A stretch of 64,000 nucleotides of DNA from Pontiella sp. (lineage in GTDB: Bacteria > Verrucomicrobiota > Kiritimatiellia > Kiritimatiellales > Pontiellaceae): the NCBI GenBank assembly GCA_050290185.1, contig JBNKHE010000007.1:160001-224000 (forward strand), written 5' to 3'. The stretch's first letter is position 1. Every line of letters starts with the position of its first letter. A program made the position numbers and the translations under genes. Positions 8,030 through 35,160 of the stretch are shown in pieces. The notes under the pieces were generated by a model. That model saw nothing but the letters and a program-made list of their open reading frames with translations. It did not search any database and was not told the origin of the DNA.

Positions 8030-8205
8030 GGGCAAAAGGAATCTATTTGACGGATTTCCACCGCAGGTTCCGGACGCTTCATCACGCTGGAAACCCGAGA
8101 GTGGTATTTTTTCTGATGTTACATGTTTTTCGCGCGCAGGGGTCTTTCGCCACGCGTGCGCGCGCGAGGTGTAACCTGTTACGCGTTTTCATTTTTGGGT
8201 AGGTG

Positions 8206-8829: not shown

Positions 8830-10643
8830 CCGATCGGCGGAAGCTGTTCAACATCTTCCGCGAGGTTTGGCGGCCTCCGGAAAAGGATACCCCCTGGCGA
8901 TGGGGGGAAAGAAATGTTTCGGACATTCCCTATTCGCCGATTCCCGGGCGCTTCCGCTCTGCGAACTCTCCGCACATCCGGGAACCGATGGAGGCCATGG
9001 CCGACCCGTCGGTGAAAGAGGTTGCGATTCTGGCACCGATCCAGTCCACGAAGTCACTCGGAGCGGAAATATTCTCGTGCTACCTGATTCCGAACATGCC
9101 GGGGCCAACGTTGTGGTTATGCGAAACCGATGACGATGCAAAAGACCATTCCGAGAGCCGCCTGCAGCCGCTTTACGAAAAGTGCGCGCCGGTGAAAGCC
9201 CTTTTCCCGGCGGACAAAAACAAGCGCCGTAACGCAACGATTCATTTCACTAATGGCATGACGCTCTGGATTCTCGGGGCCCACAACATCAAGAACCTGC
9301 AACGCCGCTCAATTCGCTGGGTGATTGGTGATGAGGTGTGGAACTGGCCGCAAGGGCACATGGCCGAAGCCGAAGCGCGCACCACGGCTTTCGGCTGGCT
9401 GGGAAAGTGCATCTGGTTGAGTCAGGCCGGCGTTGAAGATGATGAGTGGGACCAGAAATTCAAGAGCACCGACCAGCGGGAATTAACGTTTGAATGCCCA
9501 GAATGCGGAGAGCGGCAGGCCTATGAATGGAACCAGGTCGAATGGGATAAAACGTGCAAGGATGAAGAGGGGAACTACAACTTCGAAGTGCTGCGCGAAT
9601 CCACGCGATACAAGTGCAAGGCCTGTGAAACGCTCATCGAGGATACGCCGGTAAACCGCCGGAAAATGGGGGAGTCCGGCAAGTTCATCACAACGAATCC
9701 GAACGCGGCAAAGGAGTTGGTTGGCTTCCATTGGAACGGGATCGCCACGATGAAGTGGGGGCGCATGGCCGAACTGTATATCCGGGCAAAGCTTTCAGCG
9801 AAGAAAGGCGATCTGAACCCGCTTGTTCAATTCTACCAGAAGCGCCTTGCCAGACCATGGGACGAAAACGCGGAAGACTTCGGGATTGATGTACCCACCG
9901 AAGCCTATGAGCTCTCCAAGTTCTGGGAAAAAGAGGGCTATCTCAACGCCAAGGGTCAGGTTGTCGAAGGCGGTGACGAAACCGCCCGGGTGCCGCTGAG
10001 GTTTCTCACGGTGGACTGCCAGACCGACCACTTCTGGCTTACAGTCCGGAGCTGGGCCCCGAACGGGCAATCGCGGCTGGTCTGGTATGAGCGCGTTTTA
10101 ACCTGGGAGGATGTCGAAGAGACGCAGGTGAAATACAGCGTTCATCCGCAGATGGTCTTTGTCGATGCCGGACATAACCCATACGAGGTTTACAAACAGT
10201 GCGGAAAGCGCGGGTGGACGGCGTTGCGCGGTGACCAGCGCGAAGGGTTTATTCATACCCGCACCACGAAGGATGGCCGCCGGGAAAAGACCAGGCGCTT
10301 CTATTCCATGGCACAGGATCAGATGGCCGGCGGCGTTAAATGCCGGATGTTCTATTTTTCGGCCAACCGGATGCGGGACATCCTTCAGAGCCTCCGGCGG
10401 ATCAAGCTCGGTGATGAGTTGATATGGCAGGTTCCGGATGATGCCGACAAGTCATATCGCCGGCAGCTGGAATCGGAACGCCGAACCAAGAAGCGCGGAA
10501 AGTGGATATGGGAACAGATCGGCAGACGCCCGAACCACTATTTCGACTGCGAGGTCATGAGCGTATGCGCGGCGGTCATGCTGAAGATCGTCGGGGAAGA
10601 GTCGGTTGACACCGCCGGTTCTGATGATGAGCGTGATACCTGA
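8826..10643 (+). CDS. Terminase large subunit, lambda GpA family
   Basis: Walker A-like APIQSTKS, Walker B VIGDE, two CxxC pairs, GFHWN, nuclease LTVDCQ, and C-terminal NHYFDCE. Confidence 0.95.
   Translation: MTDRRKLFNIFREVWRPPEKDTPWRWGERNVSDIPYSPIPGRFRSANSPHIREPMEAMADPSVKEVAILAPIQSTKSLGAEIFSCYLIPNMPGPTLWLCETDDDAKDHSESRLQPLYEKCAPVKALFPADKNKRRNATIHFTNGMTLWILGAHNIKNLQRRSIRWVIGDEVWNWPQGHMAEAEARTTAFGWLGKCIWLSQAGVEDDEWDQKFKSTDQRELTFECPECGERQAYEWNQVEWDKTCKDEEGNYNFEVLRESTRYKCKACETLIEDTPVNRRKMGESGKFITTNPNAAKELVGFHWNGIATMKWGRMAELYIRAKLSAKKGDLNPLVQFYQKRLARPWDENAEDFGIDVPTEAYELSKFWEKEGYLNAKGQVVEGGDETARVPLRFLTVDCQTDHFWLTVRSWAPNGQSRLVWYERVLTWEDVEETQVKYSVHPQMVFVDAGHNPYEVYKQCGKRGWTALRGDQREGFIHTRTTKDGRREKTRRFYSMAQDQMAGGVKCRMFYFSANRMRDILQSLRRIKLGDELIWQVPDDADKSYRRQLESERRTKKRGKWIWEQIGRRPNHYFDCEVMSVCAAVMLKIVGEESVDTAGSDDERDT
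10605..10626 (+). promoter_or_regulatory. Recurrent TTGACAC late-module motif, copy 1
   Basis: GTTGACAC-N10-GATG; similar copies at 13094, 15786 and 26029. Confidence 0.5.
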
Positions 10644-10889: not shown

Positions 10890-12338
10890 GTGGCTGGGAG
10901 ATTTAGCAATTTCATCGCAACCAAGTTTCCAAGGCTTGGGCGTGTATTGGGTTTTTCAGGCTATGAGTCGGCGAATACTTCCCGCGCACGGGGCTGGCTT
11001 CCGGGCGGATATCCGCGCGATGCAAAAGAGGAAATGACATCCTTTACGCGCCGCGAGCTGGTAAAAAAATCACGCTACCACCTAAAAAACTCCGGCTTTT
11101 ATCGTGAGTACGTCGGCGATATGGAGATGTATTCCGTTGGTTCTGGCATGCGCCCGCAGGCCCAGACGGACAATCAGGAGTGGAACCGCAAAGCCGAGGA
11201 ATATTTCAAGGATCGCTTTTGCTTCCGGGCCGATATCACAGGCCGTTTTTCATTTGCCGAATGCCAATCCCTTGTGTGCCGGGCGGTGGATTCAGATGGT
11301 GAATTATTCGTTGTAAAGGTTCGAGACCGATTCGGTAGACCGCGCATCCAGCTGATTGAGTCGCATCGGTGCCAAGACGACGGCACAATGGATACGACGG
11401 ATGGTATCAAGTTCGACCAAGTCGGCGCTCCGGTTTACTACAACTTCCGGCAGGGCGATGATATGACCTATCGCAAGGTTCCGGCCAATGCGGTGATGCA
11501 TGTCTTCGAGCCGGAATATATTTCCGCCGCGCGCAACGCCCCTCCACAGCAGCACAGCATGAATAACATGCAGGATGTTGCCGAACTGCTGGCCCTCGAA
11601 AAAGGTGCGGTTAAATCAATATCCGATATCGCCCACATCCTGAAGACCGAAGCCGGAGAGGTCGATGAGAGCGGTGATTACGTGGTCAAGGTTTCTGAGG
11701 ATCAAGACGGCGATGGAGAACAAACAGATCCGGAATACATCCAAAAAATAACCGGACGTAAAACAGTAGCCATTAAGCCCGGGGAAGACCTGAAGCCATA
11801 TGAAAGCAGCCGCCCAAGTCCGACCTTTGCCGGATTCTTGAACTACATCGACCGGGAATCCGCCGGCGGCGGCCTGCCGCCTGAATTTATTTCAGATCCT
11901 TCCAGAATCGGCGGTGCCGTTGTGCGCCTGGTGACGGCCAAGGCGCAGCGCCGGGTTGAAAAGCGACAGCAGGCCATCATCAACCGTATGCTCGTGCAAT
12001 GCTGGGCCTACGTGATCGGCGATGCCATCGATCGCGGTGATCTGGAGCCGATGAAGGGATGGTACAAGGTTCGCTATGTCACGCCGAAAAAAATAACCGT
12101 GGATGCCGGCAGGGAAAACAAGGAAAACCGCGCCGACGTCGAGACCGGTCTGAAAACATTGGACGAGCATTTCAAGGAACTCGGACAAGATTTCGAGGAG
12201 CAGCTCGATATCAGGGCGCGCAATGCGCAGGCGATACTCAAAGCCGCTGAAAAATACGGCGTACCGGTCGAGATGCTTTACAACCCGTCAAAATATACCA
12301 GCTCCCAAGATATCCAAATCAGCACGCAGGGGGATTGA
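10890..12338 (+). CDS. Portal protein, lambda family
   Basis: YESA...R...DGELF...IQLIESHR...DGIKFD...PSPTF...VDAGRE pattern; position in head module. Confidence 0.92.
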   Translation: MAGRFSNFIATKFPRLGRVLGFSGYESANTSRARGWLPGGYPRDAKEEMTSFTRRELVKKSRYHLKNSGFYREYVGDMEMYSVGSGMRPQAQTDNQEWNRKAEEYFKDRFCFRADITGRFSFAECQSLVCRAVDSDGELFVVKVRDRFGRPRIQLIESHRCQDDGTMDTTDGIKFDQVGAPVYYNFRQGDDMTYRKVPANAVMHVFEPEYISAARNAPPQQHSMNNMQDVAELLALEKGAVKSISDIAHILKTEAGEVDESGDYVVKVSEDQDGDGEQTDPEYIQKITGRKTVAIKPGEDLKPYESSRPSPTFAGFLNYIDRESAGGGLPPEFISDPSRIGGAVVRLVTAKAQRRVEKRQQAIINRMLVQCWAYVIGDAIDRGDLEPMKGWYKVRYVTPKKITVDAGRENKENRADVETGLKTLDEHFKELGQDFEEQLDIRARNAQAILKAAEKYGVPVEMLYNPSKYTSSQDIQISTQGD

Positions 12339-12340
12339 CC

Positions 12341-13153
12341 ATGAGATTCGCACGCATTCAAAACGCCGTTTACCGTCAGCCGTGGAACATTACCGGCGGC
12401 GGTTGGATGAGCATTCATGAGTTGCTGCAAAGCCGGCTTTCCTCCGAGTACCAGCAAGGCATGTTTTCCGACTGGGTGAACGAGCGTCCAGACATGGAAA
12501 TCGATCAGAACGGGATCGCCCATATCCACGTTGTCGGCGTGCTGGGCAAGGGGTTGACCAATATCGAACGCAGTTGCGGTAACACCGGATATGAGCAAAT
12601 CGAGGCCGAGTTCGAAGAGGCCGAAGAGCGCGGTGCGCGCGGGGTGTTGCTGTATGTAAATTCACCGGGCGGCGGCGCCATTGGGAACGCGGAAATCTCC
12701 GAGCGCGTTTCTGGATCCCCGCTTCCGGTTGTCACGTTCGTGGATGATCTTTGCGCATCGGCTGCCTACTCGATTGCGGCGGGAACGAACCACATCGTCT
12801 GCACGAAATCAGCCGAGGTCGGCAGCATCGGAACCATCATTGCTTTGGTCGATGTGTCTGGTGCGTGGGATCAGATGGGCATGAAGCCCGAGTTTATCAC
12901 GCACACGGGCGGCGACCTGAAGGACGCCAGCTGGCCACCCAGCTTCACCGACGCGCACAAGGAATATTTCCAGCAAACGTGCGACGACTTCTTCGGCCTG
13001 TTCAAGGGCCATGTGCTGGCCCACCGCAATGTGGAGCCTTCCGCCATGCGCGGTCAGTGCTTTGTCGGCCAGCGGGCGAAGGATGCCAATCTGGTTGACA
13101 CGATTGGAAATTATGAAACCGCGTATGCTGAAATTTTGAAGCGCGCAAAATAA
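12341..13153 (+). CDS. S49 family head maturation protease
   Basis: VNSPGG, CASAAYSIA, VGSIG and ANLVD motifs. Confidence 0.93.
   Translation: MRFARIQNAVYRQPWNITGGGWMSIHELLQSRLSSEYQQGMFSDWVNERPDMEIDQNGIAHIHVVGVLGKGLTNIERSCGNTGYEQIEAEFEEAEERGARGVLLYVNSPGGGAIGNAEISERVSGSPLPVVTFVDDLCASAAYSIAAGTNHIVCTKSAEVGSIGTIIALVDVSGAWDQMGMKPEFITHTGGDLKDASWPPSFTDAHKEYFQQTCDDFFGLFKGHVLAHRNVEPSAMRGQCFVGQRAKDANLVDTIGNYETAYAEILKRAK
13094..13115 (+). promoter_or_regulatory. Recurrent TTGACAC late-module motif, copy 2
   Basis: GTTGACAC-N10-TATG at the end of the protease gene, ahead of scaffold/capsid. Confidence 0.45.
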
Positions 13154-13681: not shown

Positions 13682-14581
13682 ATGGCACTCGACGCAGGAC
13701 TCGCAATTGATATCGTCTCGCAGGCAGCACTGAAGGCTTTCAATGCTACCATTCAGGCACTCAACTCCTTTTCGACCGACTTTTCCGCCGATGCGGTGAA
13801 GGTGGGCGAGAAGATTAAGTTTACCTGGACGCCCGCCGGCGCAACCGTGACGGACTACAATCCGGCCAATGGTTATGTGACTGAAGCACCTTCCCAGCTG
13901 CCGAAGGAACTGGCGATCGACAAGAACAAGTATGTTGGTTTCCACTACACCGACGATCAGCTGGCCACCATGACCCTGCTGAAGCTCGAAGAAATCGGCG
14001 CTCAGTATGGCGCGGCTCTGGCCGAAGCGGTTCTGGCCGATATCTGGGGAATCATCTTAGCCGCCAACTATGCGCAGGTCATCCCGGCCCCGATCATTGC
14101 CGCTGATTTCGACAGCGACGATGTGCTGGACATCGGCAAGCAGTGCACCGTTCTAAAGTGGCCCAAGGCCAACCGAAACATGATTCTGAACCCGGATTTC
14201 TATACCGCGCTCGCCAAAGATCCGGCGGTCAAAGATGCTTCCAAGTCTGGCGGCACAGAAGCCGTGCGCGAAGGGCGTGTTCCGAACCTGGGCACCTTCG
14301 CCAATATCTTCGAGTCCACGGTACTCGCAGAAAACGGCCAAAACCTCCAGGGCTTCGCGGTGAATACCGAAGCGATCGGTATTGCCTTCCGGGCGGTTAC
14401 TCCGGACATGTCCGCTCAAAAGGTAATGGAGCACCGTGTTTACACCAACGAAAGCGGCATGACCATCTGCTTCAAGGAATGGTATGACCCGAACAAGAAG
14501 ACAACCAAGCGCGTGCTGGAAGTCTACTACGGCAAGTGCGTAGGCAACCCGAACGGTATTGTCCGCATCGTTGATGCGTAA
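13682..14581 (+). CDS. Major capsid protein
   Basis: 299 aa, strong AGGAG RBS, position after protease and scaffold, C-terminal YYG..V.NP.GIVRI typical of HK97-fold coats. Confidence 0.8.
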   Translation: MALDAGLAIDIVSQAALKAFNATIQALNSFSTDFSADAVKVGEKIKFTWTPAGATVTDYNPANGYVTEAPSQLPKELAIDKNKYVGFHYTDDQLATMTLLKLEEIGAQYGAALAEAVLADIWGIILAANYAQVIPAPIIAADFDSDDVLDIGKQCTVLKWPKANRNMILNPDFYTALAKDPAVKDASKSGGTEAVREGRVPNLGTFANIFESTVLAENGQNLQGFAVNTEAIGIAFRAVTPDMSAQKVMEHRVYTNESGMTICFKEWYDPNKKTTKRVLEVYYGKCVGNPNGIVRIVDA

Positions 14582-18481: not shown

Positions 18482-20809
18482 ATGGCAGACAGCCGCGTCA
18501 GTGTGTTGATCGATATGCGCTCCAGGCTCAACGGCCTGAACGCGGCCTCTGCCGGCCTTGGCAACCTCATCAAAAAAGCCGCCGGATTCGCCGCGGCCTA
18601 CGTTGGTGTGCGGCAGGCGATCCGTGGCAGCCGGGACATCATCAAGCTCGGTGCCGACCTCGACCACCTTTCAGGCCGTACAGGAATATCAGTCTCATCC
18701 CTAAATGTACTTCAACGAGCATTCGAAGATAATGGGGTGTCGGCAGATAAGCTAGGCATGGCTGTAAGCGGATTGCAGAAACGGATAGTAGATGCTTCTC
18801 GTGGTACTGGCGAAGGCATGATCGCTTTAGATATGCTCGGATTGAGCGTAAAAAAAATTATTGATCTTTCTCCTGAAGATCAGTTCTCAGAGATAGCATC
18901 TGCAATATCGTCAATTAAAGATCCTGCAAAACAAGCGGCGGCGGCTATGGGTCTTTTCGGTGACGCTGGAGCCGAGCTTTTGCCGATGTTCAAAAATGGC
19001 GGCGCGATCGACGACGCGCGCGCATCGCTCGGCAGCATGCCCGAGGTTCTGGAACGAAACGCCGAACAATTTGAACGCATCGATACGCTGGCCGGTAGGC
19101 TGAAGAATAAGTCAAGGCAGTTGTTCCTAGGGGTGGGCGACCAGATCGCCGACGAGCTGCTGGGACCACTGGAGACCATCAATACAATGGACTTCACGCA
19201 GGCCGGACAAAATATCGGTGCGTTCCTTAATCTGGCAATCGACGCCTTCCGGGACGGCACCTTCGGTGAATTTATTTCCCTCTCCATGGAGGCCGGTTTT
19301 GAAAAGGGCACGGCCACGGCCAAGGCGGCGCTCGATGCGCTGTTCGCATCCTTCGGCGAAGATGGGGAAATGTGGAAACATGCGCTTAATGGTGCGATGA
19401 CCTTTGGGGTAGGTGCCGCTAAGTTCCTGCTTACCGTGTTCGAAACACCGATAACATATCTCTCGACCGGCTTCCGGTGGATTGGCGATCGTATTCTCGT
19501 GATGTTCGGGCACATCGGAAAGGCAATCAGTGGAATTTTCGAAGCACTAATAAACGGCATAATCCACGGCTTCGAAGTGGCGCTTAATTTCGTCATCGAC
19601 AAGGTAAACGCTATCACTGAAGCCATGCCGTTCACCGATGGCACCCAGATCGAGCGTAAGAAACTTGATCGTGTTGATTTTTCGAATAATCCGGTTCGTG
19701 AGGCAAAAGGATGGCAAGAACTCTTTGACGAACAGAAAGCCGGAATATCGGAAACAAACGACCTGATTATCAACGGCCTGAACAAGAGCCTTGAGGAATC
19801 GCGCGAGATCATCGGAATCACAAACGATGAAAACGAAAGAGGTAAAAGCGCGCTTGAGAAGATTAATGATCTAATCGAGGAACAGAAACAAAAGCGCCTT
19901 GCAATTGTTGATGCGGCGAAAGCAACAGTAGCTACCGATACAGCTAATGCCGATACCGCTCCAAAGCGGCTTGAAGGAAAAAACTTCTACGAAAAATCAT
20001 TCAACAACTATGCCGACATGGTTGATGGAGTTGGCGATTCAGGAGTAACTAAAATTCAGGCTGTAGACGCGGCATTGATGGATTTTTATACAAATGCCGG
20101 AACTGTTGCAGAACAGTTACACGAGCAAATAGGAAATATTTCAAGCGCTCTTACGACCAGCATTTCGGCAGGAATAGAGGGTCTGATTAACCGGACAAAG
20201 GATTGGGGTGATGCGCTCCGCGATATCGGATCCAGCATTGTAAGCAGCCTGATTAAGTCGTTTGCCGATATGGCCGCTTCATGGGTGATGACCCATGTCA
20301 TAATGAAAGGCGTTTCGCTGGCGTGGTCTGCTTTTTCTGACATGATGCATGCAAAGGATGTTGCTACCACTACGGCTGCCGAATCCGCAAAGGGAGCTGC
20401 CGCCGCTCCGACAGCAACGCTAATATCAATATCAACGTTGGGTCTCGCCGCCGTAATTGGCGGTGCGGCCGTAATATCAGCACTGGCAACCGTTGCCGCA
20501 ATGGGAGGCTTTTCAGAAGGGGGATATACCGGAGATGGCGGTAAATATGACCTCGCTGGAGTGGTTCATCGTGGTGAGTTCGTAATCCCGGCTGATGTTG
20601 TTTCCGGGCTGGGCGGTGCGAAGGGTGTAGAAGCGATGCTGGCCGCCAACGGAGCCGGCTCCGCCGCACCGGCCCCTGCTTCCGGAGGTAAGACAGATAA
20701 CAGCCTGTTTATTCTAAATTCAGAAGCACAGCTAAGACGGATGATGAGTTCGCGCGATGGGACTAAGGCGCTTCTTGATTTTGGTCGGAAGCACTGGGGT
20801 CTTACATGA
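18482..20809 (+). CDS. Tail tape measure protein
   Basis: 775 aa, Ala/Gly-rich helical; C-terminal [26 protein letters not shown] motif. Confidence 0.92.
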
Positions 20810-21363: not shown

Positions 21364-22776
21364 ATGGCCTATCCCGTCTTCCCGTTCCGGATCGATTACA
21401 CGAGCAACATTACGATCCGCTGGAAAAATGCCCAGCTTCCGCACGAAATTTCCCCGGCGCCGCTTGGATTTTCAGATGGGGTCCAGACAGCCCGCAAGCG
21501 CGCATTCGGGGTTTCGGCCAGGGTAAAAACCGGCGCGCATGTCGACATCCTAGAATCATTCTTTGCCGATATCGGTTGCGATCCGTTCTGGCTTCCGGAT
21601 CTGCCGCGCGAAATATCATCCTTCCAGCAGATCAGCGATACCGTGCTTGAGGTTGATGGGTTCGACCTTACGGCATTCATGCAGAACCAGAACGCCTATT
21701 CGTTGATTTTACGGCCTCACGGGTCGGCGGATCCGGTCATCGCCGCCGTTCAGTCCGTTGAACGGGTTGGCGGTAAAGACCGCATCACCCTTGCCGCCGC
21801 GTATCCCGGGCTACCGACTCCGGATGAAGCGGAAATTTGTTTTTCATCGCTGGTGGTTATCGATTCGGATTCGGTCAAGTTTGATCCGGAAACCTCTACA
21901 TTCTGGAGGGTATCATTCACGGCAATCGAGCAACCATTCGATCCGGAGCCAAGCCGTCAGATTTACTATTGCTACGCGTTCAGCTGCACCGACCATCTGG
22001 GCAACTCGCGGGTGCATCGGCACACGACCGATGCCGACAGCCGCAACATCGGGGCCGATGCCTATGAGCCGCACGACATCATGCACAGCGGCCTTGAGCA
22101 TGGCCGGCTGACGTCCGACAACAAATGCACCATATCGCTGCGCGCGGTGCCGGGCGGGGTCTTTGCAACATGGAAGCCCCGGGCCATCGAGCCGCCAGTA
22201 CTGGTCACCGTCTACAAAGTCGAGGTCGTCGCCGGAATCGATCAGGCCGCCGTGACGGAATTTTCCGGCGAATGCGCGCAAATCATGCGGCAAGGGGATT
22301 TGATCGAGGCCACGTTCCGTTCCAATGCGCTCAACCAAAAAATTCCAAATTTCTTGGTTTCAGTGCGCGACAACGCCGATCCGTGGGAAACACACGATCC
22401 GGAACTATTCACCGTCGACGCCGTGGTGCTGCTGGTCGAGTTCGACCGGATCTATTTGACCATTGCGGACGCCGCCAACGTCGACGAATTGCCCGGCGGT
22501 CATTTGGTGATCGAAACCGCCGGCCTCGCCGTGGTCCGCGATATCCTGTCGATCACATCCATCGGCGGCGATGGCTATGTGGCGCGCATAAACTACAGCA
22601 TCGAGGGCGTCGGCGTTGGCGATCCATGCACCTGCTACTTTGGCTATGACGGCTCTCCGGAAACATACGTGCGTCTTTTCGGTAGCCTGGAAGGCTTTGG
22701 TGGACACCCGCGGCTCCCAGCCCAAAATCCGACGTTCAAGGCCATCAACGTGACAACATCCGGAGGCAAGAAATGA
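21364..22776 (+). CDS. Tail tip/hub protein (DUF2163/gpL-like C-terminus)
   Basis: C-terminal GYDGS...FG....FGGHPRLP..NP resembles baseplate hub proteins preceding NlpC/P60 genes. Confidence 0.65.
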   Translation: MAYPVFPFRIDYTSNITIRWKNAQLPHEISPAPLGFSDGVQTARKRAFGVSARVKTGAHVDILESFFADIGCDPFWLPDLPREISSFQQISDTVLEVDGFDLTAFMQNQNAYSLILRPHGSADPVIAAVQSVERVGGKDRITLAAAYPGLPTPDEAEICFSSLVVIDSDSVKFDPETSTFWRVSFTAIEQPFDPEPSRQIYYCYAFSCTDHLGNSRVHRHTTDADSRNIGADAYEPHDIMHSGLEHGRLTSDNKCTISLRAVPGGVFATWKPRAIEPPVLVTVYKVEVVAGIDQAAVTEFSGECAQIMRQGDLIEATFRSNALNQKIPNFLVSVRDNADPWETHDPELFTVDAVVLLVEFDRIYLTIADAANVDELPGGHLVIETAGLAVVRDILSITSIGGDGYVARINYSIEGVGVGDPCTCYFGYDGSPETYVRLFGSLEGFGGHPRLPAQNPTFKAINVTTSGGKK

Positions 22777-23204
22777 CGTTCGAAGAAAGGATCGTGGAAA
22801 GCGCACGGCGGTGGATTGGGCTTCATGCCCCATTTGCCCCGCATGGCCGTTCCGAGCGCTATGGAATCGATTGTGTAAACCTTGCCCACGTCATCTACAC
22901 CGAAGCTGGAATGAATCTTCCAGACCTTCCGCGCCGCTATTTCATGGACTCCAGCCGGCACCAGACCGACCAGACCGTCATGGATTGGATCGAATCAATC
23001 GGCTCTTTTCAGGAAATACCGCTGGCTGAAAGCTATCCGGTCGGCACCCTGCTTTGCGCCGACATCGGCCGATCGCCTTACCACGTTGCCATTGTGATCG
23101 ACAACGCCCACGCCGTCCACAGCATCCGCCGCGCTGGGGTTTGCTGCGTGGCCTATGGAACCGAAATCAAAAAAATCACCCACGCATTCAAGCCAATCCA
23201 ATGA
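22773..23204 (+). CDS. NlpC/P60 tail-associated peptidase
   Basis: ARRWIG..F..HGR....GIDC, HVAIV and HS catalytic motifs. Confidence 0.88.
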   Translation: MTFEERIVESARRWIGLHAPFAPHGRSERYGIDCVNLAHVIYTEAGMNLPDLPRRYFMDSSRHQTDQTVMDWIESIGSFQEIPLAESYPVGTLLCADIGRSPYHVAIVIDNAHAVHSIRRAGVCCVAYGTEIKKITHAFKPIQ

Positions 23205-25582
23205 GTTCTGGAACCAACAAGGAATATGTATCCGGTTACCCGCGGAAATTGGGGAACATCGATTTCGAGCGCGTGTCTACCAACCAGGAGGGTGTTGCCC
23301 TTCCGGTGGTTCAGGGGACGGCCCGGCTCGGAGTGACGTGGCTTGATGGCGCCAAAAACGTAAATGCCTATGCAGTTAAGGTAAAGGTCGGAAAAAGCAA
23401 GGAAACGGTAGGCTACAACTACTATGCCGATATGGCCGGCGTGATTTGTCTTGGCCCGGTCGACCGGCTGCTGGCGGTCTACTCGGCGGAAGAAACCATA
23501 TGGTCGGGCGATTTGACCGACCCCGGCACGGGCTATGTCAACATCCAGACCACCGTCGGAAATGCGCGGTTCCGGTTTGGAACACCAAACCAGACCATTA
23601 GCGGCTATGTACTTGATCCGGCAAAACACCCCGGCTACCAGAACCAGGCGATCATCGAATTTAAACAAATGTTTTTTGGCCGCGATACCACCAACGCGCG
23701 GCAGATTGAAGTGCTGATAGTCCGTGCCGTGCCGGATGCGGACATGATCGATGATCGTTCCATCAATGCCGCCGCCGCGCTGCGCGAAGTGGTCTCAAAT
23801 TCGTTGTGGGGGGCCGGGCAAAACCTACCGCTTTCCAATGTTCAAACGGTGCAGGATCAACTTGCGGAGGATGCCATTGGGATGTCGTTCAATTTGAACA
23901 GCATCGACGATGCGGAAAAAGTGGTTGAAGCGATCATTGATACATTCAACGGCGATCTTGTTTGGGAAAAAACAAGCGGGGAATACATCCTGAAGCAGGG
24001 ATACCGCCCGCCGGCCAATACGGCAATACTCCCGGTTATCATGGCTGCCCAGTGCACATCCTTGCCAAAAACAAAAATAAAAGCCTACGTCGACCAGCCC
24101 GGCGAATTGCGGATGAACTACATCAACCGCGCCCGCAACTTCAACGACGCCCAGGTTCTGAAACGCTCGCAAGGGCATAGATTGCTGAACGGCATTCGAA
24201 AAACAACCACACTTGAGCGGCAGGAGATCGATAATACGGCGACGGCGCTGAAATTGCTCGCGCAGGCCATGGTTCAAATGTCGCTTCCGGCAGCCGAAGG
24301 TTCATTCGAAATTCGTGCGGTCGACGCGGAAACGGTCAACATCGCCGACTGGTTTTGGCTGGAGCTATGGACCGGGGCTGATTTGACCATGTGCCGGTGC
24401 ACCAGCAAAAAGCAGGCAGATGCATTTTCCCGCGACGTTGCGATCGAATACGAAGCCGACTCCACGCGCTGGGCCTACACCGGCGCCGCCGGCGGCGCCG
24501 CATACACACCGCCGGATCTTCCGGAATACCTACCCGAAACACACATCTTCCAGCAGCTCATCGAGACGCCGCGCTTTATGTCGACCGGAATCGACCTGAT
24601 TACCGCCGTTGGGCGCGCCCACAGCCTGATAGTCGGTTTCACGCCATACTTTGCCCTCGATGCCGACCCGACCTATTCAACCGCCTTGAAAATAGAAAAT
24701 TCGGCGGTAAACCATTTCGGCCTGCCTGTTGAAGTGAAGAACGCAACCGGGACCGCAACGGATCTTGTGGTCACCCCGCTCAACAACGATGTGACGGAAT
24801 ACGAAAGCGTTGCCGCCGCCGCCCAGCAAGCCGGAGAGCTGCTGCTGTTCATCGGGGACGAAATAATCTCCTTGCGCGACCTGTTCATCAACGGAAATGA
24901 TTTGGAGCTAGACAGTACGTTGCGCGGGTTCGGCGATACCAAGCCGAAAAACCATGCAGCAGGGGCGCAGGGAATCATCATTTACGCCGCCGAAGCCTTT
25001 AGGATCAACCCGGCTCCAGGTGAAACCACGAACCGGAACATCAAGCTCCCAGCCGAAACGCTGCTGGCGGTGCAGGATCTTGATGAAGTCGACCCGATCC
25101 CATGGGTATCCGAACTTCGGATAAATCGTCCGCTCAATATATCGGCGCTCACCATCGAAGGAGAAGTGTTGCCGAAACCGGCGCACCACTACAATTTGGC
25201 CGATTATGATCTGGTATCAACCCCGGCATGGAACGCCTCTGTTTCAATGACCGTGGCAAAACAGGACTGGTCGAGCCTGGGATTCATCTCGGCAAATTTC
25301 TACACAGCCGCCGACCTCTACACCCGCGTCCGTGCCTACGGAGCCGACGAAGTAACCTTGATCGGCGACACCAGCAGCGCAAACGCGACATTTTCCGTAC
25401 CGCTTGCATCCGAAGGCCACGCAACCGGACATCTCGAAATAACCACCTATCACCCCGATACGCCAGAACTGGAAAGCCAAGTTGCTTTGCGGATCGACAT
25501 AACCTTCGGAACGCCTGGCTACGCGGTAGACGCGAACGGCGACTTTGCAATCGATGGAAACGGCGATTACGCCACAGAATAG
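23201..25582 (+). CDS. Central tail tip / host specificity protein (gpJ/GTA-like)
   Basis: ATG 23201 (ATGA overlap); LPVVQGTARL, ICLGPVD, HPGY and LRGFGDT....HAAG patterns. Confidence 0.8.
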   Translation: MSSGTNKEYVSGYPRKLGNIDFERVSTNQEGVALPVVQGTARLGVTWLDGAKNVNAYAVKVKVGKSKETVGYNYYADMAGVICLGPVDRLLAVYSAEETIWSGDLTDPGTGYVNIQTTVGNARFRFGTPNQTISGYVLDPAKHPGYQNQAIIEFKQMFFGRDTTNARQIEVLIVRAVPDADMIDDRSINAAAALREVVSNSLWGAGQNLPLSNVQTVQDQLAEDAIGMSFNLNSIDDAEKVVEAIIDTFNGDLVWEKTSGEYILKQGYRPPANTAILPVIMAAQCTSLPKTKIKAYVDQPGELRMNYINRARNFNDAQVLKRSQGHRLLNGIRKTTTLERQEIDNTATALKLLAQAMVQMSLPAAEGSFEIRAVDAETVNIADWFWLELWTGADLTMCRCTSKKQADAFSRDVAIEYEADSTRWAYTGAAGGAAYTPPDLPEYLPETHIFQQLIETPRFMSTGIDLITAVGRAHSLIVGFTPYFALDADPTYSTALKIENSAVNHFGLPVEVKNATGTATDLVVTPLNNDVTEYESVAAAAQQAGELLLFIGDEIISLRDLFINGNDLELDSTLRGFGDTKPKNHAAGAQGIIIYAAEAFRINPAPGETTNRNIKLPAETLLAVQDLDEVDPIPWVSELRINRPLNISALTIEGEVLPKPAHHYNLADYDLVSTPAWNASVSMTVAKQDWSSLGFISANFYTAADLYTRVRAYGADEVTLIGDTSSANATFSVPLASEGHATGHLEITTYHPDTPELESQVALRIDITFGTPGYAVDANGDFAIDGNGDYATE

Positions 25583-26062: not shown

Positions 26063-28216
26063 ATGAAAAATAGAAAATCACTTGTTGTCACACTGATTGC
26101 TTTGTTGTTCGCGCTGCCGTCATTTGCGGCCAGCCTTAACCAAATATTCAACACCAGCCCATCTCCCATCACCAACAACAACGATGGAGTCAGCCAGTTG
26201 ATCAAAGTCAAAGGATCTTTGGCCGAAAACGACGTGCTCGTCTACGACGGCCTTGGAAACGTTGTTTCCGCCGGAGTCTCACCTACCAACTTGGTTGTTT
26301 CTAGCAACAGCTACACCAAGGCGGAATCAGACGCGCTTATTGCCACAAAAACCGATTCCGTTTCAAACGCGCTGTCTGTCGTGATCGGGTTTAAGCAAAA
26401 CGCCAACACGGCCAACGCCAACAACGCCACGCTCGCACAGGGCGATTTGGCAGATTCCTCTATCCAGCCTTCCGACCTGCTTTATACGGCCCAACTTGAT
26501 GGGTTGCAGCAACTGCTTACCTCGTCTGTTGGAACGAATGCAATTGCCACGTATGGTAAAAATGCCGAAATCATCAGTGTTAATTGCTTGGATTTCGATG
26601 GGACAAATTCATACGTGAAAATGCCATTCACCACGGATGTAGGAGCGTCCGACTTTTCATTCCACTGTACAATCAACCCGGATATTGTATCGGGCGCTGC
26701 CAAAACGATTTTTTCCCACGGAGAGGTATCAAGCAACAGCAGGAGTTGCTGGGTGGTATTAGCAAATGGCCTTTTATCCACTAGGCTTAGCGCCGACGGG
26801 ACGGCACAAACTGAAGTTATTGGCGGGACCGCGGTGCCAACAAATACATGGACTTCGTTATCCGCATACAAGACTGGATCCAGCATATTCTACTATTACA
26901 ACGGATCCCTTAATCTGGCGGGTACGACCGTATCGTCTCTTCGCAATTCTGGCGGCTACGCATACACAGGATCACGGTACTCAGGAACGGCGATGGACTA
27001 CCCATTCAACGGAAAAATATCGGATGTACACCTCGATATTCTTCCAACAACGCTCGATGTATATCTCTATATTGGACAATCGAATTGCGAGGGTAATCCA
27101 GGGGAGTATGGAACACTGCCGACCATTTTGCAGGGGGAAAACTTCCCGTTCTTCGAAGCCTCAATAAACCATGGGACGCAAACCAAGCGCGGAACCTTTC
27201 TCAAGCCGTTCAATTCCACGCAATGGGGGGCTGAGCTTGTATTTGGACAGGTTATCACCCAGCGTGCACAAAAGCGCATTGCAATTGTAAAGGTATCTAC
27301 TGGAGGTACTTCGCTGGCCGTTGATTGGCAGCCAGGGGGAGAGCAGTACACCCAACTAACAAACGCATGGGCAAATTTCGAGACTGACATGGCATCGGCT
27401 GGATATACGATTGGTGATGTGCGCGGGATTTGGATGCAAGGCGAGAAAGACGCCCAATCGAACTTGTGGGCGAATGCTTATGTCGAGAACTACGACAACA
27501 TGAATGCAAGCTTCGAAAACGATACTGGCGTAGAACTGGTAAATACCACATTTTGCCGCATAAACGACGAGGGCAACCCCGGGTCGGACAGAGTACGCGC
27601 AGCATTGGTTGAGCTTGGCAACCGACCGGGAAATACATGGATAGATACGGACTCGATGCCGCGTCGTCCAGACGGCGTGCACCTTGACCCCGATGGGTTG
27701 CAAGCTCTTGGTACGGCCATCGGCAATGCCGTTGTTGTCAATGCGGCAAACAATGCAGATCCGGTTTTCTGGAATGTTTATTCAGAAGGATCATCGACCA
27801 ATATTTACGACGTGTCCGGCAATACCAATACCGGCACCGCAGTCAGTGCATCATGGACAACATCCAGCGGAATCGAATCTTGGAACCACCTAAAAGGGTG
27901 GAGCATGAGAGGTGCAACGGATGCATATATACCGGCGTTATACAATCTTTCCGGAGACGCTTCTGGCGGTGCGCTACAGCACCTTGGCGGGTTTGTCCAC
28001 AACGGGAGCGAGTGTGACTTAATACTCTGGGATGGGTCCACCAACACCTACGTCAACCTACTGGAGTCGTCGTCCTACGCCTCTAATAGCGACCCAACAA
28101 ATCGGTACTCATCGGTTGGAACGGGCGGAAGAATAACGACATTTGCGGCATATACCAACAACCTTCCGGTTGCGTCGGATACCAGGCTGAAGGGCTTCTT
28201 GGAGTTGCAGAAGTGA
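26063..28216 (+). CDS. Signal-peptide protein with LamG/concanavalin-like domain and SGNH sialate O-acetylesterase (SASA) domain
   Basis: Signal peptide ending SFA; LDFDGTNSYV...FNGKISDV (LamG); GQSN, GGTSL, WMQGEKD and DGVH (SASA catalytic motifs). Confidence 0.85.
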   Translation: MKNRKSLVVTLIALLFALPSFAASLNQIFNTSPSPITNNNDGVSQLIKVKGSLAENDVLVYDGLGNVVSAGVSPTNLVVSSNSYTKAESDALIATKTDSVSNALSVVIGFKQNANTANANNATLAQGDLADSSIQPSDLLYTAQLDGLQQLLTSSVGTNAIATYGKNAEIISVNCLDFDGTNSYVKMPFTTDVGASDFSFHCTINPDIVSGAAKTIFSHGEVSSNSRSCWVVLANGLLSTRLSADGTAQTEVIGGTAVPTNTWTSLSAYKTGSSIFYYYNGSLNLAGTTVSSLRNSGGYAYTGSRYSGTAMDYPFNGKISDVHLDILPTTLDVYLYIGQSNCEGNPGEYGTLPTILQGENFPFFEASINHGTQTKRGTFLKPFNSTQWGAELVFGQVITQRAQKRIAIVKVSTGGTSLAVDWQPGGEQYTQLTNAWANFETDMASAGYTIGDVRGIWMQGEKDAQSNLWANAYVENYDNMNASFENDTGVELVNTTFCRINDEGNPGSDRVRAALVELGNRPGNTWIDTDSMPRRPDGVHLDPDGLQALGTAIGNAVVVNAANNADPVFWNVYSEGSSTNIYDVSGNTNTGTAVSASWTTSSGIESWNHLKGWSMRGATDAYIPALYNLSGDASGGALQHLGGFVHNGSECDLILWDGSTNTYVNLLESSSYASNSDPTNRYSSVGTGGRITTFAAYTNNLPVASDTRLKGFLELQK

Positions 28217-28248
28217 GTAAATCAGCACGTGCTTGAAAGGGGGGTATA

Positions 28249-28503
28249 ATGCCTGAACATGTTAAGGTAAGCGCAGTGAGTGCCGTGGTCGGCGTATTCA
28301 TCACGTTCGGATCAATATTCATCGCCACCGGAAGCTACCGCCAAAAACTGGATGATACCTCCAAGGAAATTGTTCAGCACCGCGCGGATATAATTGCTTT
28401 GTATACCACGTCGAAGGGACTTGAGCACGACATCCAGGACATCAAGCAGATGCAGCAGGAATCCCGCGCGGACATAAAGACCCTGTTGATCAGAACAAAA
28501 TGA
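28249..28503 (+). CDS. Small one-TM coiled-coil protein (holin/antiholin-like)
   Basis: N-terminal hydrophobic helix followed by a heptad-rich tail; position in lysis region. Confidence 0.55.
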   Translation: MPEHVKVSAVSAVVGVFITFGSIFIATGSYRQKLDDTSKEIVQHRADIIALYTTSKGLEHDIQDIKQMQQESRADIKTLLIRTK

Positions 28504-28541
28504 TTTCCGGCAATGGGGCCGGGATTAGTGGAGGTCAAAAA

Positions 28542-28826
28542 ATGAAGAAAAAGTTTAGCATGCTGATGGTATTGGCCGTTCTTGCCCTGGTGATGGCGGC
28601 TATGCCGTCGTTCGCCCAGGACGCGGGTGCCGAGGCCGTTGCCAGTGCATCGGATGGCGGCCTCTTGGCGTGGTTGTCCCGGAACATGGGCGCGGTGTTC
28701 GGAATCGTAACGGCAACGCTCGGGGTTCTGGCGATGGTCTGCAAGCTGACACCATCGCCGAGGGACGACGCAATCGTCGCCAAAATCCTTGGCTGGCTCA
28801 ACATGTTGCCGGTGAAAAGGCAGTAG
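28542..28826 (+). CDS. Holin-like membrane protein
   Basis: GGAGG RBS; two hydrophobic segments; KLTPSPRDD motif common in small phage holin-like proteins. Confidence 0.65.
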   Translation: MKKKFSMLMVLAVLALVMAAMPSFAQDAGAEAVASASDGGLLAWLSRNMGAVFGIVTATLGVLAMVCKLTPSPRDDAIVAKILGWLNMLPVKRQ

Positions 28827-28827
28827 C

Positions 28828-29193
28828 ATGTTGAAGGCTGCTCTACTCGCATTGCAGGAGTGGCTGCACTGGCGGCGCGTCATGGCTGAGATCCAGGCGC
28901 GCCGCTTGGTTTTGACGGAGCTTGAGCGCGTCGAAAGGGAAATCGATGAAATCGAAGACGATATCGAAAAGCATCGCCGCAATGGCGATCATGCTGATGC
29001 TGACCGGTTGCTTCTCGCAATCTCGCGTAGAGCCTGTTTTGAGCGGGGGATACTTGACCTTGCGGAAGGGGCAGGTTTTCACCGCTCGGAAAGACTGCGT
29101 TTTGGTGGATCTGGAGATCGTGGAGCAGAAGGACGCGATAATCATCGATCTGATCCGGTCGCAACGGAAGCAGGAAGTGAAGCAGCTGGTTGA
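28828..29193 (+). CDS. Coiled-coil lysis-region protein (possible inner spanin)
   Basis: Starts 1 nt after the previous stop; charged coiled coil; overlapped by a lipoprotein ORF. Confidence 0.5.
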   Translation: MLKAALLALQEWLHWRRVMAEIQARRLVLTELERVEREIDEIEDDIEKHRRNGDHADADRLLLAISRRACFERGILDLAEGAGFHRSERLRFGGSGDRGAEGRDNHRSDPVATEAGSEAAG

Positions 29194-29197
29194 ATGA
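28982..29197 (+). CDS. Overlapping lipoprotein (possible outer spanin, Rz1-like)
   Basis: MAIMLMLTGC lipobox in the +1 frame within the previous gene; ATGA overlap with the next gene. Confidence 0.55.
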   Translation: MAIMLMLTGCFSQSRVEPVLSGGYLTLRKGQVFTARKDCVLVDLEIVEQKDAIIIDLIRSQRKQEVKQLVE

Positions 29198-29442
29198 AAG
29201 CAATTACACTGTTCATTTTAATGTCGATCACCGGATGTGCAACGCGCGTCACAACCTGCACATGGGGTCCGGATCCCGGGAAAAACATCCTCAAAAAAAC
29301 CACGGTAAGCCATTCATGGTGGCTTGGTTTGCCAGCAATTGCACCGATGGATTCATCCGTTAAAGACGGAGAGTTCCAAGTCGAAACAAGAGCAATGAAA
29401 GTCCCGGACGGATGGTTCGGCGTCTACCGGGATCAAAACTGA
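29194..29442 (+). CDS. Small lipoprotein
   Basis: MKAITLFILMSITGC lipobox. Confidence 0.7.
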   Translation: MKAITLFILMSITGCATRVTTCTWGPDPGKNILKKTTVSHSWWLGLPAIAPMDSSVKDGEFQVETRAMKVPDGWFGVYRDQN

Positions 29443-29472
29443 TTTAGCTGGGCTCCTCCTCTCTCCCGGCGG

Positions 29473-29502
29473 CCTCCCTTGCTTCGGCGAGGGAGGTTTT
29501 TT
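29473..29502 (+). terminator. Rho-independent terminator ending phage late transcription
   Basis: cctcccttgc-ttcg-gcgagggagg followed by TTTTTT. Confidence 0.88.
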
Positions 29503-29513
29503 ATTTCTCAGCA

Positions 29514-29616
29514 TTGTATATAAACGAAATATAAACGGATATATATTGAATATACGAAATACAGCGCAAAAACACCATAAAACAGCGTTTTTGATCCGAT
29601 TGTTTTAGGGTAAGAG
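29514..29616. other. Putative attR: AT-rich phage arm plus crossover region
   Basis: Very AT-rich; ATATAAACG twice with 11-bp period (29518, 29529); ACGAAATA at 29524 and 29554; abuts the rnpB fragment. Confidence 0.65.
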
Positions 29617-29783
29617 CCCACCGCCCCAAGGGTAACCGAGGGGGCAGGGTAAACCCCGTCCGGAGCAAGATCAAATAGGGAATCGAGGAACGGCCCGTTC
29701 CGCAGGGGTTCCGGGTTGATCGCACTAGATAAATGATCGACTCCGCAAGGAGAACAGAATCCGGCTTACCGCCCTGACTGCTT
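29608..29783 (+). ncRNA. rnpB: RNase P RNA (type A), 3' half only; 5' half absent
   Basis: Conserved blocks in order: GGTAAGAGCCCACC (L14/P14), GGTAAACCCC...GGAGCAAG, CAAATAGG, CGGCCCG, CCGGGT, CTAGATAAATGAT and ACAGAATCCGGCTTA. No upstream GAGGAAAGTCC block. Confidence 0.93.
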
Positions 29784-30449
29784 TTATCCTTTTGGCAGCT
29801 TTTTTTGCTGGATCACTTCAAAGGCCAACCGCTCCAGAGCTTTGCCGTTGGGTAGATCCAGCTTGTTCTTGATATTGATGCGGTGGGTGTCGACCGTATT
29901 GCGGCTGATGTTGAGTTTTTCCCCGATGGTTATCGAGTCGTGACCTTCTCCCAACAGCTTGAAGATATCCATTTCGCGGTTGGACAGCGTGTCGAGCAGC
30001 GAATGTTTTCCCGACGTGCGACCGTTCATTTTCTTTTCGATCCGTTCCTGGATGTCGGGATGAAAGCAGAGGTTGCCGGCGAGTACGGAGCGGATGGCCT
30101 GCTTGAGCTCGGCGGGCGGCGTGGTCTTCATGACATAGCCGGTCGCCCCGGCCATTGCCGTCCGTTCCGCGAACAGACGCTCTTCGGACATCGTGTAGAC
30201 CAGCATTTTAAGTTTTGGGTAGGTGGTATGGATGCGCTGGATCAGATAAGTCCCGTCCGAGTCGCCCAGGGATAGATCAATGAGGGCCAGATCCGGCACA
30301 TCCGACTCGAGCAGCTCCATGGCTTCATTGGCCGAAAAGGCCATTCCAAGAATTTCCATATCGGGTTCGTTGGATAAGAGAATTTTCAACCCGTCATGAA
30401 TGATAGGATGATCGTCGATGACCATAACCGAATGCTTGTTGTTGTTCAT
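29784..30449 (-). CDS. NarL/LuxR family response regulator
   Basis: Receiver IDDHP...DLSL...GYVMK plus LSNREMDI...TVDTHR HTH. Confidence 0.93.
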   Translation of the reverse strand: MNNNKHSVMVIDDHPIIHDGLKILLSNEPDMEILGMAFSANEAMELLESDVPDLALIDLSLGDSDGTYLIQRIHTTYPKLKMLVYTMSEERLFAERTAMAGATGYVMKTTPPAELKQAIRSVLAGNLCFHPDIQERIEKKMNGRTSGKHSLLDTLSNREMDIFKLLGEGHDSITIGEKLNISRNTVDTHRINIKNKLDLPNGKALERLAFEVIQQKKLPKG

Positions 30450-30544
30450 AATACCCCTATCTGAACTTCAATATTCAAGAATTTATTCTTTTTGGGAGGG
30501 GAAATGAAGAGATTTCTTGCGGAAACAAAGAGAAGCGACTGGTT

Positions 30545-31561
30545 TTACTTTGAGCAACAGCCGGATTTTTCCCGCTCGGGAAGCAGTCCTTTCACCAGGA
30601 TGGCCACAAGTATGGCGACCCATAGGATTTGCAGGGGTCCATGGCATTCGCCCGCATGGCAAACCTGATCCATCACACCCAGCCTGGGGGTGAAAAAATT
30701 CATGGCAAAGCCAGCGGCCAGAGCGCACAACGACAATGTTGCGAGAAAGACGGCAAGTTGCTTGCGGCCAATGATCTGCCATAGCGTTGTCAGTGTTGCG
30801 GCGTTGGTTGCCGGGCCGGTTATGAGGAATACAAGCGCGGCTCCCGGTGATATGCCTGCCTTAATGAAGGCCAGTGCAATCGGAACGGATGCTGAGGAAC
30901 AGACGTAAAGCGGGATGCCGATGCCGAGCATGAGCAGCATGGCAATCGGCGAATTACCAATGGTGTTGGTGAAAAAATTATCAGGAATGAGTCCGCTGAG
31001 GATTCCCGAAAGAATGATACCGATCACCACGGGCTTGGCAATGTCCCGCGGGAGGGAGATGAATCCGTAACTCAACATGCGCTGAATCATGGGCTTTTGA
31101 TTAGGCTGGCAGCATTCTTCCTGGCACTCTTCAGTTGCTTCCTCCTCATTCGGCGATGCGGCAGTAACCGCTATGCCGCAAATGATGCCGGATAGAAACG
31201 CCACGGCTGCCCGGAAAATGGCGAATACCCATCCAAGCAGGGCATAAGTGATCATCAGACTATCGATCCCCGTCTGGGGGGTAGATGCCAGAAAGGAGGC
31301 GGTTGCGCCGCGGCTGGCACCGTGTTTGCGTAGCGAGGCCGCCAGCGGGATAACGCCGCAGGAGCAGATGGGCATAGGTACGCCAACAAGCGCGGCCTTG
31401 AACGATCCCATCCATCCTCCTCCACCAAGGTGCCTGCGGACGTAGTCCTTGGATATGAGTACGGAAAGCACGCCCGCCATCAGAAAGCCAAACAGGAGGT
31501 AGGGCGCCATGGCCAGCGTGACGCTCCAGATTTCATTCAGGACTTTTAACAGGACGTTCAT
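30545..31561 (-). CDS. Permease, SO_0444/DUF318 family (putative metal transporter)
   Basis: PICSCGVIP, STPQTG and PLYVCSSASVP motifs; multiple TM segments. Confidence 0.85.
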   Translation of the reverse strand: MNVLLKVLNEIWSVTLAMAPYLLFGFLMAGVLSVLISKDYVRRHLGGGGWMGSFKAALVGVPMPICSCGVIPLAASLRKHGASRGATASFLASTPQTGIDSLMITYALLGWVFAIFRAAVAFLSGIICGIAVTAASPNEEEATEECQEECCQPNQKPMIQRMLSYGFISLPRDIAKPVVIGIILSGILSGLIPDNFFTNTIGNSPIAMLLMLGIGIPLYVCSSASVPIALAFIKAGISPGAALVFLITGPATNAATLTTLWQIIGRKQLAVFLATLSLCALAAGFAMNFFTPRLGVMDQVCHAGECHGPLQILWVAILVAILVKGLLPEREKSGCCSK

Positions 31562-35075: not shown

Positions 35076-35160
35076 TGGTGGTGGGGGATGGATTCGAACC
35101 ATCGAACTCGTAGAGGGCAGATTTACAGTCTGCTGCGTTTGACCGCTTCGCTACCCCACC
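35076..35160 (-). tRNA. tRNA-Tyr (GTA)
   Basis: Reverse complement GGTGGGGTAGCGAAGCGG...GCAGACTGTAAATCTGC...GGTTCGAATCC...CCACCACCA; long variable arm; encoded CCA. Confidence 0.97.

Follow-up and report, generated by a model that had tools for sequence, protein, structure and literature searches.

In the genome analysed here, a temperate tailed phage of approximately 37.6 kb appears to have integrated into the middle of rnpB, the gene for RNase P RNA, through site-specific recombination by a tyrosine integrase, leaving the host with an interspecies chimera as its sole full-length RNase P RNA; we give this reading a probability of about 85%. To our knowledge, RNase P RNA is a universal, essential and single-copy ribozyme. 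The DNA under study is a stretch of 64,000 nt (hereafter the window), which corresponds to positions 160001-224000 of C7, a 248-kb contig of the host genome (G000), and coordinates given without a contig or locus name are those of the window.

According to the mechanism proposed here, the phage attachment site (attP) would carry about 177 nt of rnpB-like sequence, with arm-type repeats on both sides and the integrase gene adjoining. A crossover in the conserved middle of the gene, most likely within 29634-29669, would join the host promoter and the 5′ two-thirds of the gene to the phage copy of the last 115-150 nt. The segment supplied by the phage would comprise the P15-P17 substrate-binding module and the 3′ strands of P2, P4 and P1, while the host 3′ end would have been pushed 37.6 kb away, to 29670-29784, as an orphan behind the phage terminator.

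Anatomy of the prophage and its rnpB junctions

At the right end of the prophage, positions 29608-29784 (+ strand, 177 nt) gave a 5′-truncated match to the RNase P RNA family RF00010 (cmscan, 71.4 bits, E 1.3e-21). The gathering score of this family is 100, and the partial fragment lies below it and is hence absent from a scan at gathering score. True rnpB homology begins at 29606-29608, and the model positions placed by cmscan at 29300-29315, beyond a 282-nt insert, are filler. Taken alone, 29608-29784 is a gene fragment and not a gene. The preliminary description, based on the letters of the window, had reported an rnpB 3′ part directly after a phage terminator and an AT-rich arm, with no 5′ half upstream; direct reading and cmscan both agree with this for the window, and all the rnpB motifs quoted there are present. 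Its match of ~175 nt also stands (about 177 nt), with the correction that the leftmost 26-60 nt probably derive from the phage and not from the host. The only Rfam family above its gathering score in the window is a tRNA-Tyr(GTA) gene (35076-35160, - strand), which is unconnected with the prophage junction.

Several features can be distinguished around this junction. A terminator-like hairpin with a T run (29471-29498, + strand; 12-pair stem with seven G-C pairs and a T-rich tail) lies 3′ of the last phage ORF (29194-29442), and four terminator-like sites were counted in 29300-29900, compared to a shuffle mean of 0.7. It is followed by an AT-rich stretch (29514-29607), the phage-side arm (P arm) of attR, which harbours candidate arm-type integrase sites (ATAAACG at 29520 and 29531, TTGAATATA at 29546). 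The rnpB-like stretch itself, on the + strand, is made up of three parts: (i) the leftmost 26 nt (29608-29633), which cover the 3′ strand of P13 and most of the P14 hairpin and are probably the phage's own copy, with A at 29628 and T at 29633 where attL has G and C, respectively; (ii) a block of 36 nt (29634-29669) in which the aligned attL and attR copies do not differ, and which is the most likely crossover (core) region; and (iii) the displaced host rnpB 3′ end (29670-29784), identified by allele comparison and now an orphan, which holds the P15-P16-P17 module, J18/2 and the 3′ strands of P2, P4 and P1. The next gene, on the - strand (29784-30449), encodes a host response regulator with a receiver and a LuxR/GerE helix-turn-helix domain (Pfam Response_reg and GerE), the usual right neighbour of rnpB.

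A whole-genome Infernal search identified a single full-length rnpB in the host genome, at C7:151636-151984 (+ strand, 244.7 bits, model positions 1-367), 8 kb left of the window and 37.6 kb left of the window fragment. Being a full-length RF00010 match above the gathering score of 100 bits, this working gene is assigned to class A. A DNA search with the fragment found two rnpB-like places, namely the window fragment and the 3′ part of the working gene, in a draft assembly of 163 contigs that is 95.5% complete, so that a further rnpB may sit on missing DNA. The two 3′ copies share 86% identity over the 177 nt of their alignment. Neither the window fragment nor the working gene (L001 1501-1849) retains helix P18, which takes up about 23 model positions in the class A consensus.

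These results bear on what the preliminary description had asked for at the left end of the prophage. The rnpB 5′ half, a complete 3′ part and, 72 nt further downstream, a tyrosine integrase gene were all found there, and the Infernal search gave no intact rnpB at an unrelated locus. The ways for the host to survive that had been put forward were a replacement 3′ half of ~175 nt supplied by the phage, an RNA working in two pieces, or another copy elsewhere. The replacement and the resulting chimeric ribozyme are borne out, with a shorter exchanged segment of about 115-150 nt, as the crossover probably lies 26-60 nt inside the repeat. A two-piece RNase P RNA and a second intact copy are not required and were rejected, given the full-length gene at attL and the lack of any other match in the draft assembly.

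The element between the two rnpB copies measures ~37.6 kb (37,801 nt from core to core). Its right 29.6 kb occupy positions 1-29607 of the window (+ strand), and its left 8 kb, with attL, the working rnpB and the integrase gene, lie outside the window (G000:C7:151636-160000, equal to L031 6636-15000). The integrase (357 aa; L031 7057-8130, + strand) starts 72 nt after the working rnpB and matches PF00589 (52.8 bits, cut-off 27.1) and phrog_1 (2.5e-43). Based on PHROGs and Pfam matches, the window part encodes a small (8203-8829) and a large terminase (8826-10643), a portal protein (10890-12338), a head protease (12335-13153), a major head protein (13682-14581), a tape measure protein (18482-20809), tail proteins (21364-25582) and a SASA sialate-O-acetylesterase/ConA-like protein annotated as putative tail fibre (26063-28216), while a WYL-domain protein, an HTH repressor-like protein and a DNA methyltransferase were annotated left of the window. 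By this gene content the element is a complete siphovirus-like tailed prophage with a lysogeny module. In the last four small ORFs (28249-29442) no holin or lysin family was recognised; these gave no Pfam match and one PHROG of unknown function. Further cargo includes a peptide-deformylase-like protein (phrog_2890; 346-804) and a protein of 552 aa with two FtsK-gamma domains (1248-2906); the WYL-domain gene adjoins the integrase gene (L031 8140-8694), and the methyltransferase has 612 aa (L031 12123-13961).

In 27 of the 34 same-genus genomes rnpB is uninterrupted and has both flanking host genes within 1.5 kb, a zinc-ribbon/coiled-coil protein gene upstream and the response regulator gene downstream on the opposite strand. 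The upstream gene alone was found in five of the 34, the regulator alone in one and neither in one, at loci that are often cut by contig ends; regulator homologues within 1.5 kb of rnpB were present in 28 of the 34, one of them partial. Compared with its kin, the prophage is an insertion within rnpB. The comparison with prophage-free relatives that had been proposed thus gave an intact rnpB directly beside the response regulator, and the placement of attB in mid-rnpB, with the window junction as attR, is supported by the full gene on the left, the integrase, the prophage in between and the intact kin. The element accordingly has the features of a restoration element: a 177-nt direct repeat at its two ends, an integrase at one of them, and a target that is uninterrupted in relatives.

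Allele assignment and position of the crossover

Besides 29628 and 29633, the aligned 3′ copies differ at 18 positions and by several indels between 29670 and 29777. Over 115 nt, the attR segment and the rnpB of the relative G056 share 95.7% identity, whereas full-length identity of the attL segment reaches at most 90.5%, to the relative G006. On the tree of the response regulator the host genome falls in a clade with G056, G011, G058 and G006 (support 99/95), within which G056 groups with G000 (87/75); on the tree of the upstream gene (96/91) the clade also takes in G038, G061 and G042, and G056 belongs to it on both trees. Two types of P15-P17 module were distinguished, of which the attR type occurs in six of the seven host-clade members and the attL type in three of the 34 genus relatives (G006, G001 and G007). 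In addition, the 5′ strand of P1 in G000 carries a U that is absent from all 11 relatives aligned and that pairs with A29777 of the attR copy, whereas the attL copy has a U at the P1 position, which fits the 5′ strands of G006, G056 and G058. Because of this identity, the clade trees, the module type and the P1 pairing, 29670-29784 is attributed to the host and the matching attL segment to the phage; and since the attR copy is the host allele and the attL copy a different one, the working rnpB is a host/phage chimera.

Within its clade, G006 is the sole carrier of the rare phage-type module, the other six members being host-type; the other carriers of the phage type, G007 and G001, are placed elsewhere on the flank-gene trees, so that the module type requires at least two changes. 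This pattern is compatible with horizontal replacement of the module, perhaps by similar phages.

The two copies bound the crossover to 29608-29669, and wherever in this interval it lies the exchanged ribozyme segment is 115-177 nt long. All seven host-clade members have G at 29628, like attL, which favours a crossover in the 36-nt block. Six of the seven have T at 29633, like attR, which slightly favours a crossover further to the left; this position, part of a GNRA loop, changes freely within the genus (T in 17, C in 14 and A in one of 32 genes parsed) and is uninformative. Of the 32 relatives parsed for it, 20 share the 36-nt block without a change, and 29 of 34 share its last 22 nt. We consider a crossover in 29634-29669 (gene positions 198-233 of 349) to have somewhat better than an even chance, with a smaller but substantial share of the probability falling on 29608-29633.

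On both arms, and in the same orientation, a repeat module was observed that consists of two ATAAACG words 11 bp apart, followed 15-18 nt later by ATTGAATATA. Its second occurrence lies in the 72-nt spacer between the working rnpB and the start of the integrase gene (C7:152000, 152011 and 152029). Together, the two arms hold four of the eight ATAAACG and both TTGAATATA words of the 37.6-kb element. These shared repeats are as would be expected for arm-type integrase sites and are regarded as candidates for them.

Four sequencing runs of one study (X1-X4), which may be the source sample, were compared as k=31 contigs over 27500-31500. X1 contigs without a single difference cover the attR junction in overlapping steps (29451-29663, 29634-29741 and 29712-30144), and in all four runs contigs pass from the attL-type rnpB 3′ end into the integrase-side arm; a contig bridging the whole 27500-31500 stretch was not found in the four runs. 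One X3 contig of 5817 nt runs from the right arm of the phage through the block into the attL-type 3′ segment and on into the integrase-side arm, keeping the attR letters at 29628 and 29633 and the attL letters right of the block. This contig reads as attP, which is suggestive of an element that may be able to excise and would put the crossover in 29634-29669; as no 31-mer spans the 36-nt block, it could also be a path made of attR and attL words. The depths of phage versus host contigs (10.7 vs. 6.06 in X3, 6.8 vs. 11.6 in X2) are not readable as an excess of phage or of empty sites. A third allele of the P15-P17 module, with 9-10 differences over 29634-29741, is present in X2 and X4 at depths (30.7 and 14.7) higher than those of host or phage contigs, suggesting that related strains or species with other rnpB alleles share the samples.

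The same prophage could also have entered near the 3′ end of the gene, for instance in a 25-nt identical block at 29752-29776, in which case the working rnpB would be almost wholly native, the long attR stretch would be mostly a pseudo-copy borne by the phage, and the last 8-33 nt alone would have been swapped, as in tRNA genes. There are several identity blocks between the copies, the clade member G006 is natively attL-type, so that this type could be native in G000 as well, and k=31 contigs cannot phase alleles. We nevertheless hold this to be unlikely, as the attR-type module is present in six of seven clade members, including G056 with its 95.7% identity, and some 145 nt of rnpB homology ahead of the crossover would serve no purpose for the phage. 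In X3, moreover, the right arm of the phage (depth 10.7) runs into the attL-type module and the attR type is not among the contigs there, a weak argument, since contig holes prove nothing.

Whichever the exact position, the exchange might have been carried out by the host's homologous recombination (RecA, Campbell-type) between the phage rnpB-like segment and rnpB and not by the integrase, as the likely crossover coincides with the 36-nt block, which is the longest stretch of perfect identity in the 177-nt homology (86%) and the place where homologous recombination would resolve. The intact tyrosine integrase directly beside the site (PF00589 and catalytic residues), the same repeat module on both arms, which is the classical attP layout, and the closest integrase relatives, which adjoin RNA-gene 3′ ends in the same orientation, make this route very unlikely and point to integrase catalysis as the probable one. 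Slightly less credible again is an assembly artefact, in which a free phage with an rnpB-like segment would have been mis-joined into the host rnpB, creating a false attL and attR. In its favour, the 163 contigs form a metagenome-style draft, the shared block makes a repeat, and one X3 contig reads as attP; against this, the 248-kb contig crosses both junctions with host DNA on each side, a false join needs two consistent errors across the 36-nt repeat, the final k of common assemblers is longer than 36 nt, and the X1 contigs tile the attR junction without differences. We thus retain integrase-mediated insertion in mid-rnpB as the preferred reading.

The hybrid RNase P RNA

A host/phage hybrid appears to serve the lysogen as its RNase P ribozyme, and predicted pairings suggest that the long-range helices between the 5′ and 3′ parts (P1, P2 and P4) can form in the chimera. 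With the host 5′ strand, the predicted duplex energy of P1 is -20.1 kcal/mol for the native (attR) and -16.1 kcal/mol for the chimeric (attL) partner, and that of P2 is -7.8 and -10.4 kcal/mol, respectively. In the cmscan alignment the working gene shows two non-standard pairs, a U.U in P1 and an A.C in P2, the latter being found with the native copy as well. The P15-P16-P17 architecture is common to both alleles despite different helix sequences, with predicted folds of -22.4 and -21.4 kcal/mol, and the copies do not differ in the 3′ strand of P4 or in the L17 loop, which presumably forms P6. The chimera's score of 244.7 bits falls inside the range of 17 intact genes of the genus (230.1-254.8 bits). 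The predicted folds and the model score are consistent with a chimeric RNase P RNA that would be active.

If so, a phage can split rnpB mid-gene provided that it brings along a functional substitute for one third of the molecule. The chimera would represent a natural domain swap, in which the specificity domain and the 5′ catalytic strands of the host are combined with a foreign P15-P17 module and foreign 3′ strands, and would bear on the modularity of the ribozyme. It would also open a route for phages to drive a horizontal, piecewise evolution of rnpB, a gene that is used as a phylogenetic marker. A wider proposition, which we regard as doubtful, is that lysogeny rewires the essential ribozyme, swapping P15-P17 and the 3′ core strands for the allele of another species, and that such phages may move modules between species and leave permanent mosaics; if true, it could explain the phage-type module of G006 inside a host-type clade.

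Integrase relatives, similar elements and known systems

In the integrase, PF00589 covers residues 205-346, and a SAM-like N-terminal domain is weak (20.4, cut-off 22.3). The translation contains R..HxxR..Y catalytic residues, which we take to be the tyrosine integrase motif; with PF00589 above its cut-off and these residues in the translation, the protein is classed as a tyrosine (lambda-type) integrase. Relatives were searched in genome contigs (three loci), viral contigs (eight) and metagenome contigs (24, of which 16 were scanned), and the search also covered 89 same-order genomes, with two matches besides G000. The nearest relatives share 58% (G007), 55% (G087, equal to L032; L047) and 45% identity (L035, L036 and L048). 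The integrase gene of G007 lies directly after a tRNA-Leu(GAG) gene, and at L032, L045, L035 and L047 a stretch of ~24 nt beside the integrase was noticed by eye, which we take to resemble the 3′ end of a tRNA-Ala or tmRNA gene; ARAGORN reported no gene at the two G087 loci holding this stretch (L101 and L102). By Rfam scan, 12 of 29 relative loci have a tRNA gene beside the integrase, while none of the 29 has an RF00010 match there, and no rnpB-targeting integrase clade was found. Since the closest relatives adjoin tRNA genes, a switch of target is suggested, and within the collections searched this integrase seems to be the only one that has moved from tRNA-type targets to rnpB, which may make it a tractable example of how attachment sites change. 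By eye, the C-rich core resembles the T-arm-like att sites of the closest integrase relatives.

Searches for similar elements were extended to viral collections. An exact search of IMG/VR with the phage-type module returned no contig, and one with the 22-nt core returned a single contig (L046), the complete rnpB of an unrelated organism. INPHARED gave six weak rnpB-like matches, none related to this phage; in Microcystis phage MaAM05 (MW495066.1, 115439-115517) and in two contigs of Acinetobacter phage MD-2021a, parts of the rnpB studied here have unannotated counterparts at 68-77% identity. At least 118 matches to a 15-nt motif of the P4 3′ strand were found in viral contigs, and among the 80 taken for inspection 39 are preceded by the 5′ P4 motif and probably represent whole rnpB genes, whereas most of the other 41 are, by eye, chance matches within coding sequence; of eight run in cmscan, one contig gave a clear 5′-truncated fragment.

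An IMG/VR contig of 46,105 nt shares at both of its ends (L117 1359-1526 and L181 1-100) an identical 95-nt class A rnpB 3′ end (model positions 256-367, 64.2 bits, 5′-truncated), with no rnpB 5′ part upstream at the far end and an ABC-transporter-like gene adjoining one repeat. The contig represents a circular element whose attP is of the rnpB type or, alternatively, a provirus flanked by rnpB repeats, and it suggests that the targeting of rnpB is probably wider than this phage. The genomes G010 (C85 and C209) and G018 (C39 and C83) each have two contigs with overlapping rnpB 3′ parts that break inside rnpB (L005/L082, L030, L029 and L088), which could be due to a strain mixture or to another rnpB insertion. 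The very conserved core of 22-36 nt in the rnpB studied here could serve as a broad-host landing site.

Integrases mostly target tRNA and tmRNA genes, and the element restores the gene with a short duplicated 3′ end, as in P4, P22, HP1 and L5. Elements targeting tRNA and tmRNA genes are reportedly treated by Williams in 2002 (NAR 30:866) and in the Islander/TIGER resource. As far as the available passages of two papers go, phages and genomic islands integrate in the 3′ part of tRNA and tmRNA genes via tyrosine integrases (PMC12424338, PMC12884075). In the accessible sections of a 2025 paper, Enterococcus phage phiEf11 is described as integrating into ffs, the gene for 4.5S/SRP RNA, which is presented as a novel non-tRNA target, and tRNA/tmRNA and csRNA genes, not rnpB, are listed there as known non-coding RNA targets (PMC12540744). 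Within the full-text passages retrieved, no description of rnpB as an attachment site was found, rnpB appearing there only as a marker, promoter or annotation item; the target tables of large island databases could list it.

With phiEf11, as depicted in those sections, the element described here shares the temperate lifestyle, an essential non-tRNA small-RNA gene as attB and a core near the integrase gene; the attP and attB cores of phiEf11 are an identical 27-nt ffs sequence (PMC12540744), while here the target is rnpB, the exchanged segment is long and diverged, and the RNA becomes chimeric in sequence. As in the elements that use tRNA and tmRNA genes, the integrase gene adjoins attP, attP would include the 3′ part of a gene for a structured RNA, one junction restores that gene and the other retains its displaced 3′ end, candidate arm-type repeats are present on both arms, and the nearest integrase relatives (58%, 55% and 45%) lie beside a tRNA-Leu gene or a tRNA/tmRNA-like 3′ end. 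Unlike in those elements, the target is the gene of the RNase P ribozyme, the crossover would lie in mid-gene, about 115-150 nt from the 3′ end, and one third of the RNA is rebuilt, with about 80% identity to the original and with whole functional helices that differ in sequence. The mechanism is the classical one of tRNA- and tmRNA-targeting integrases, from which this phage differs in its target and in the depth of its crossover.
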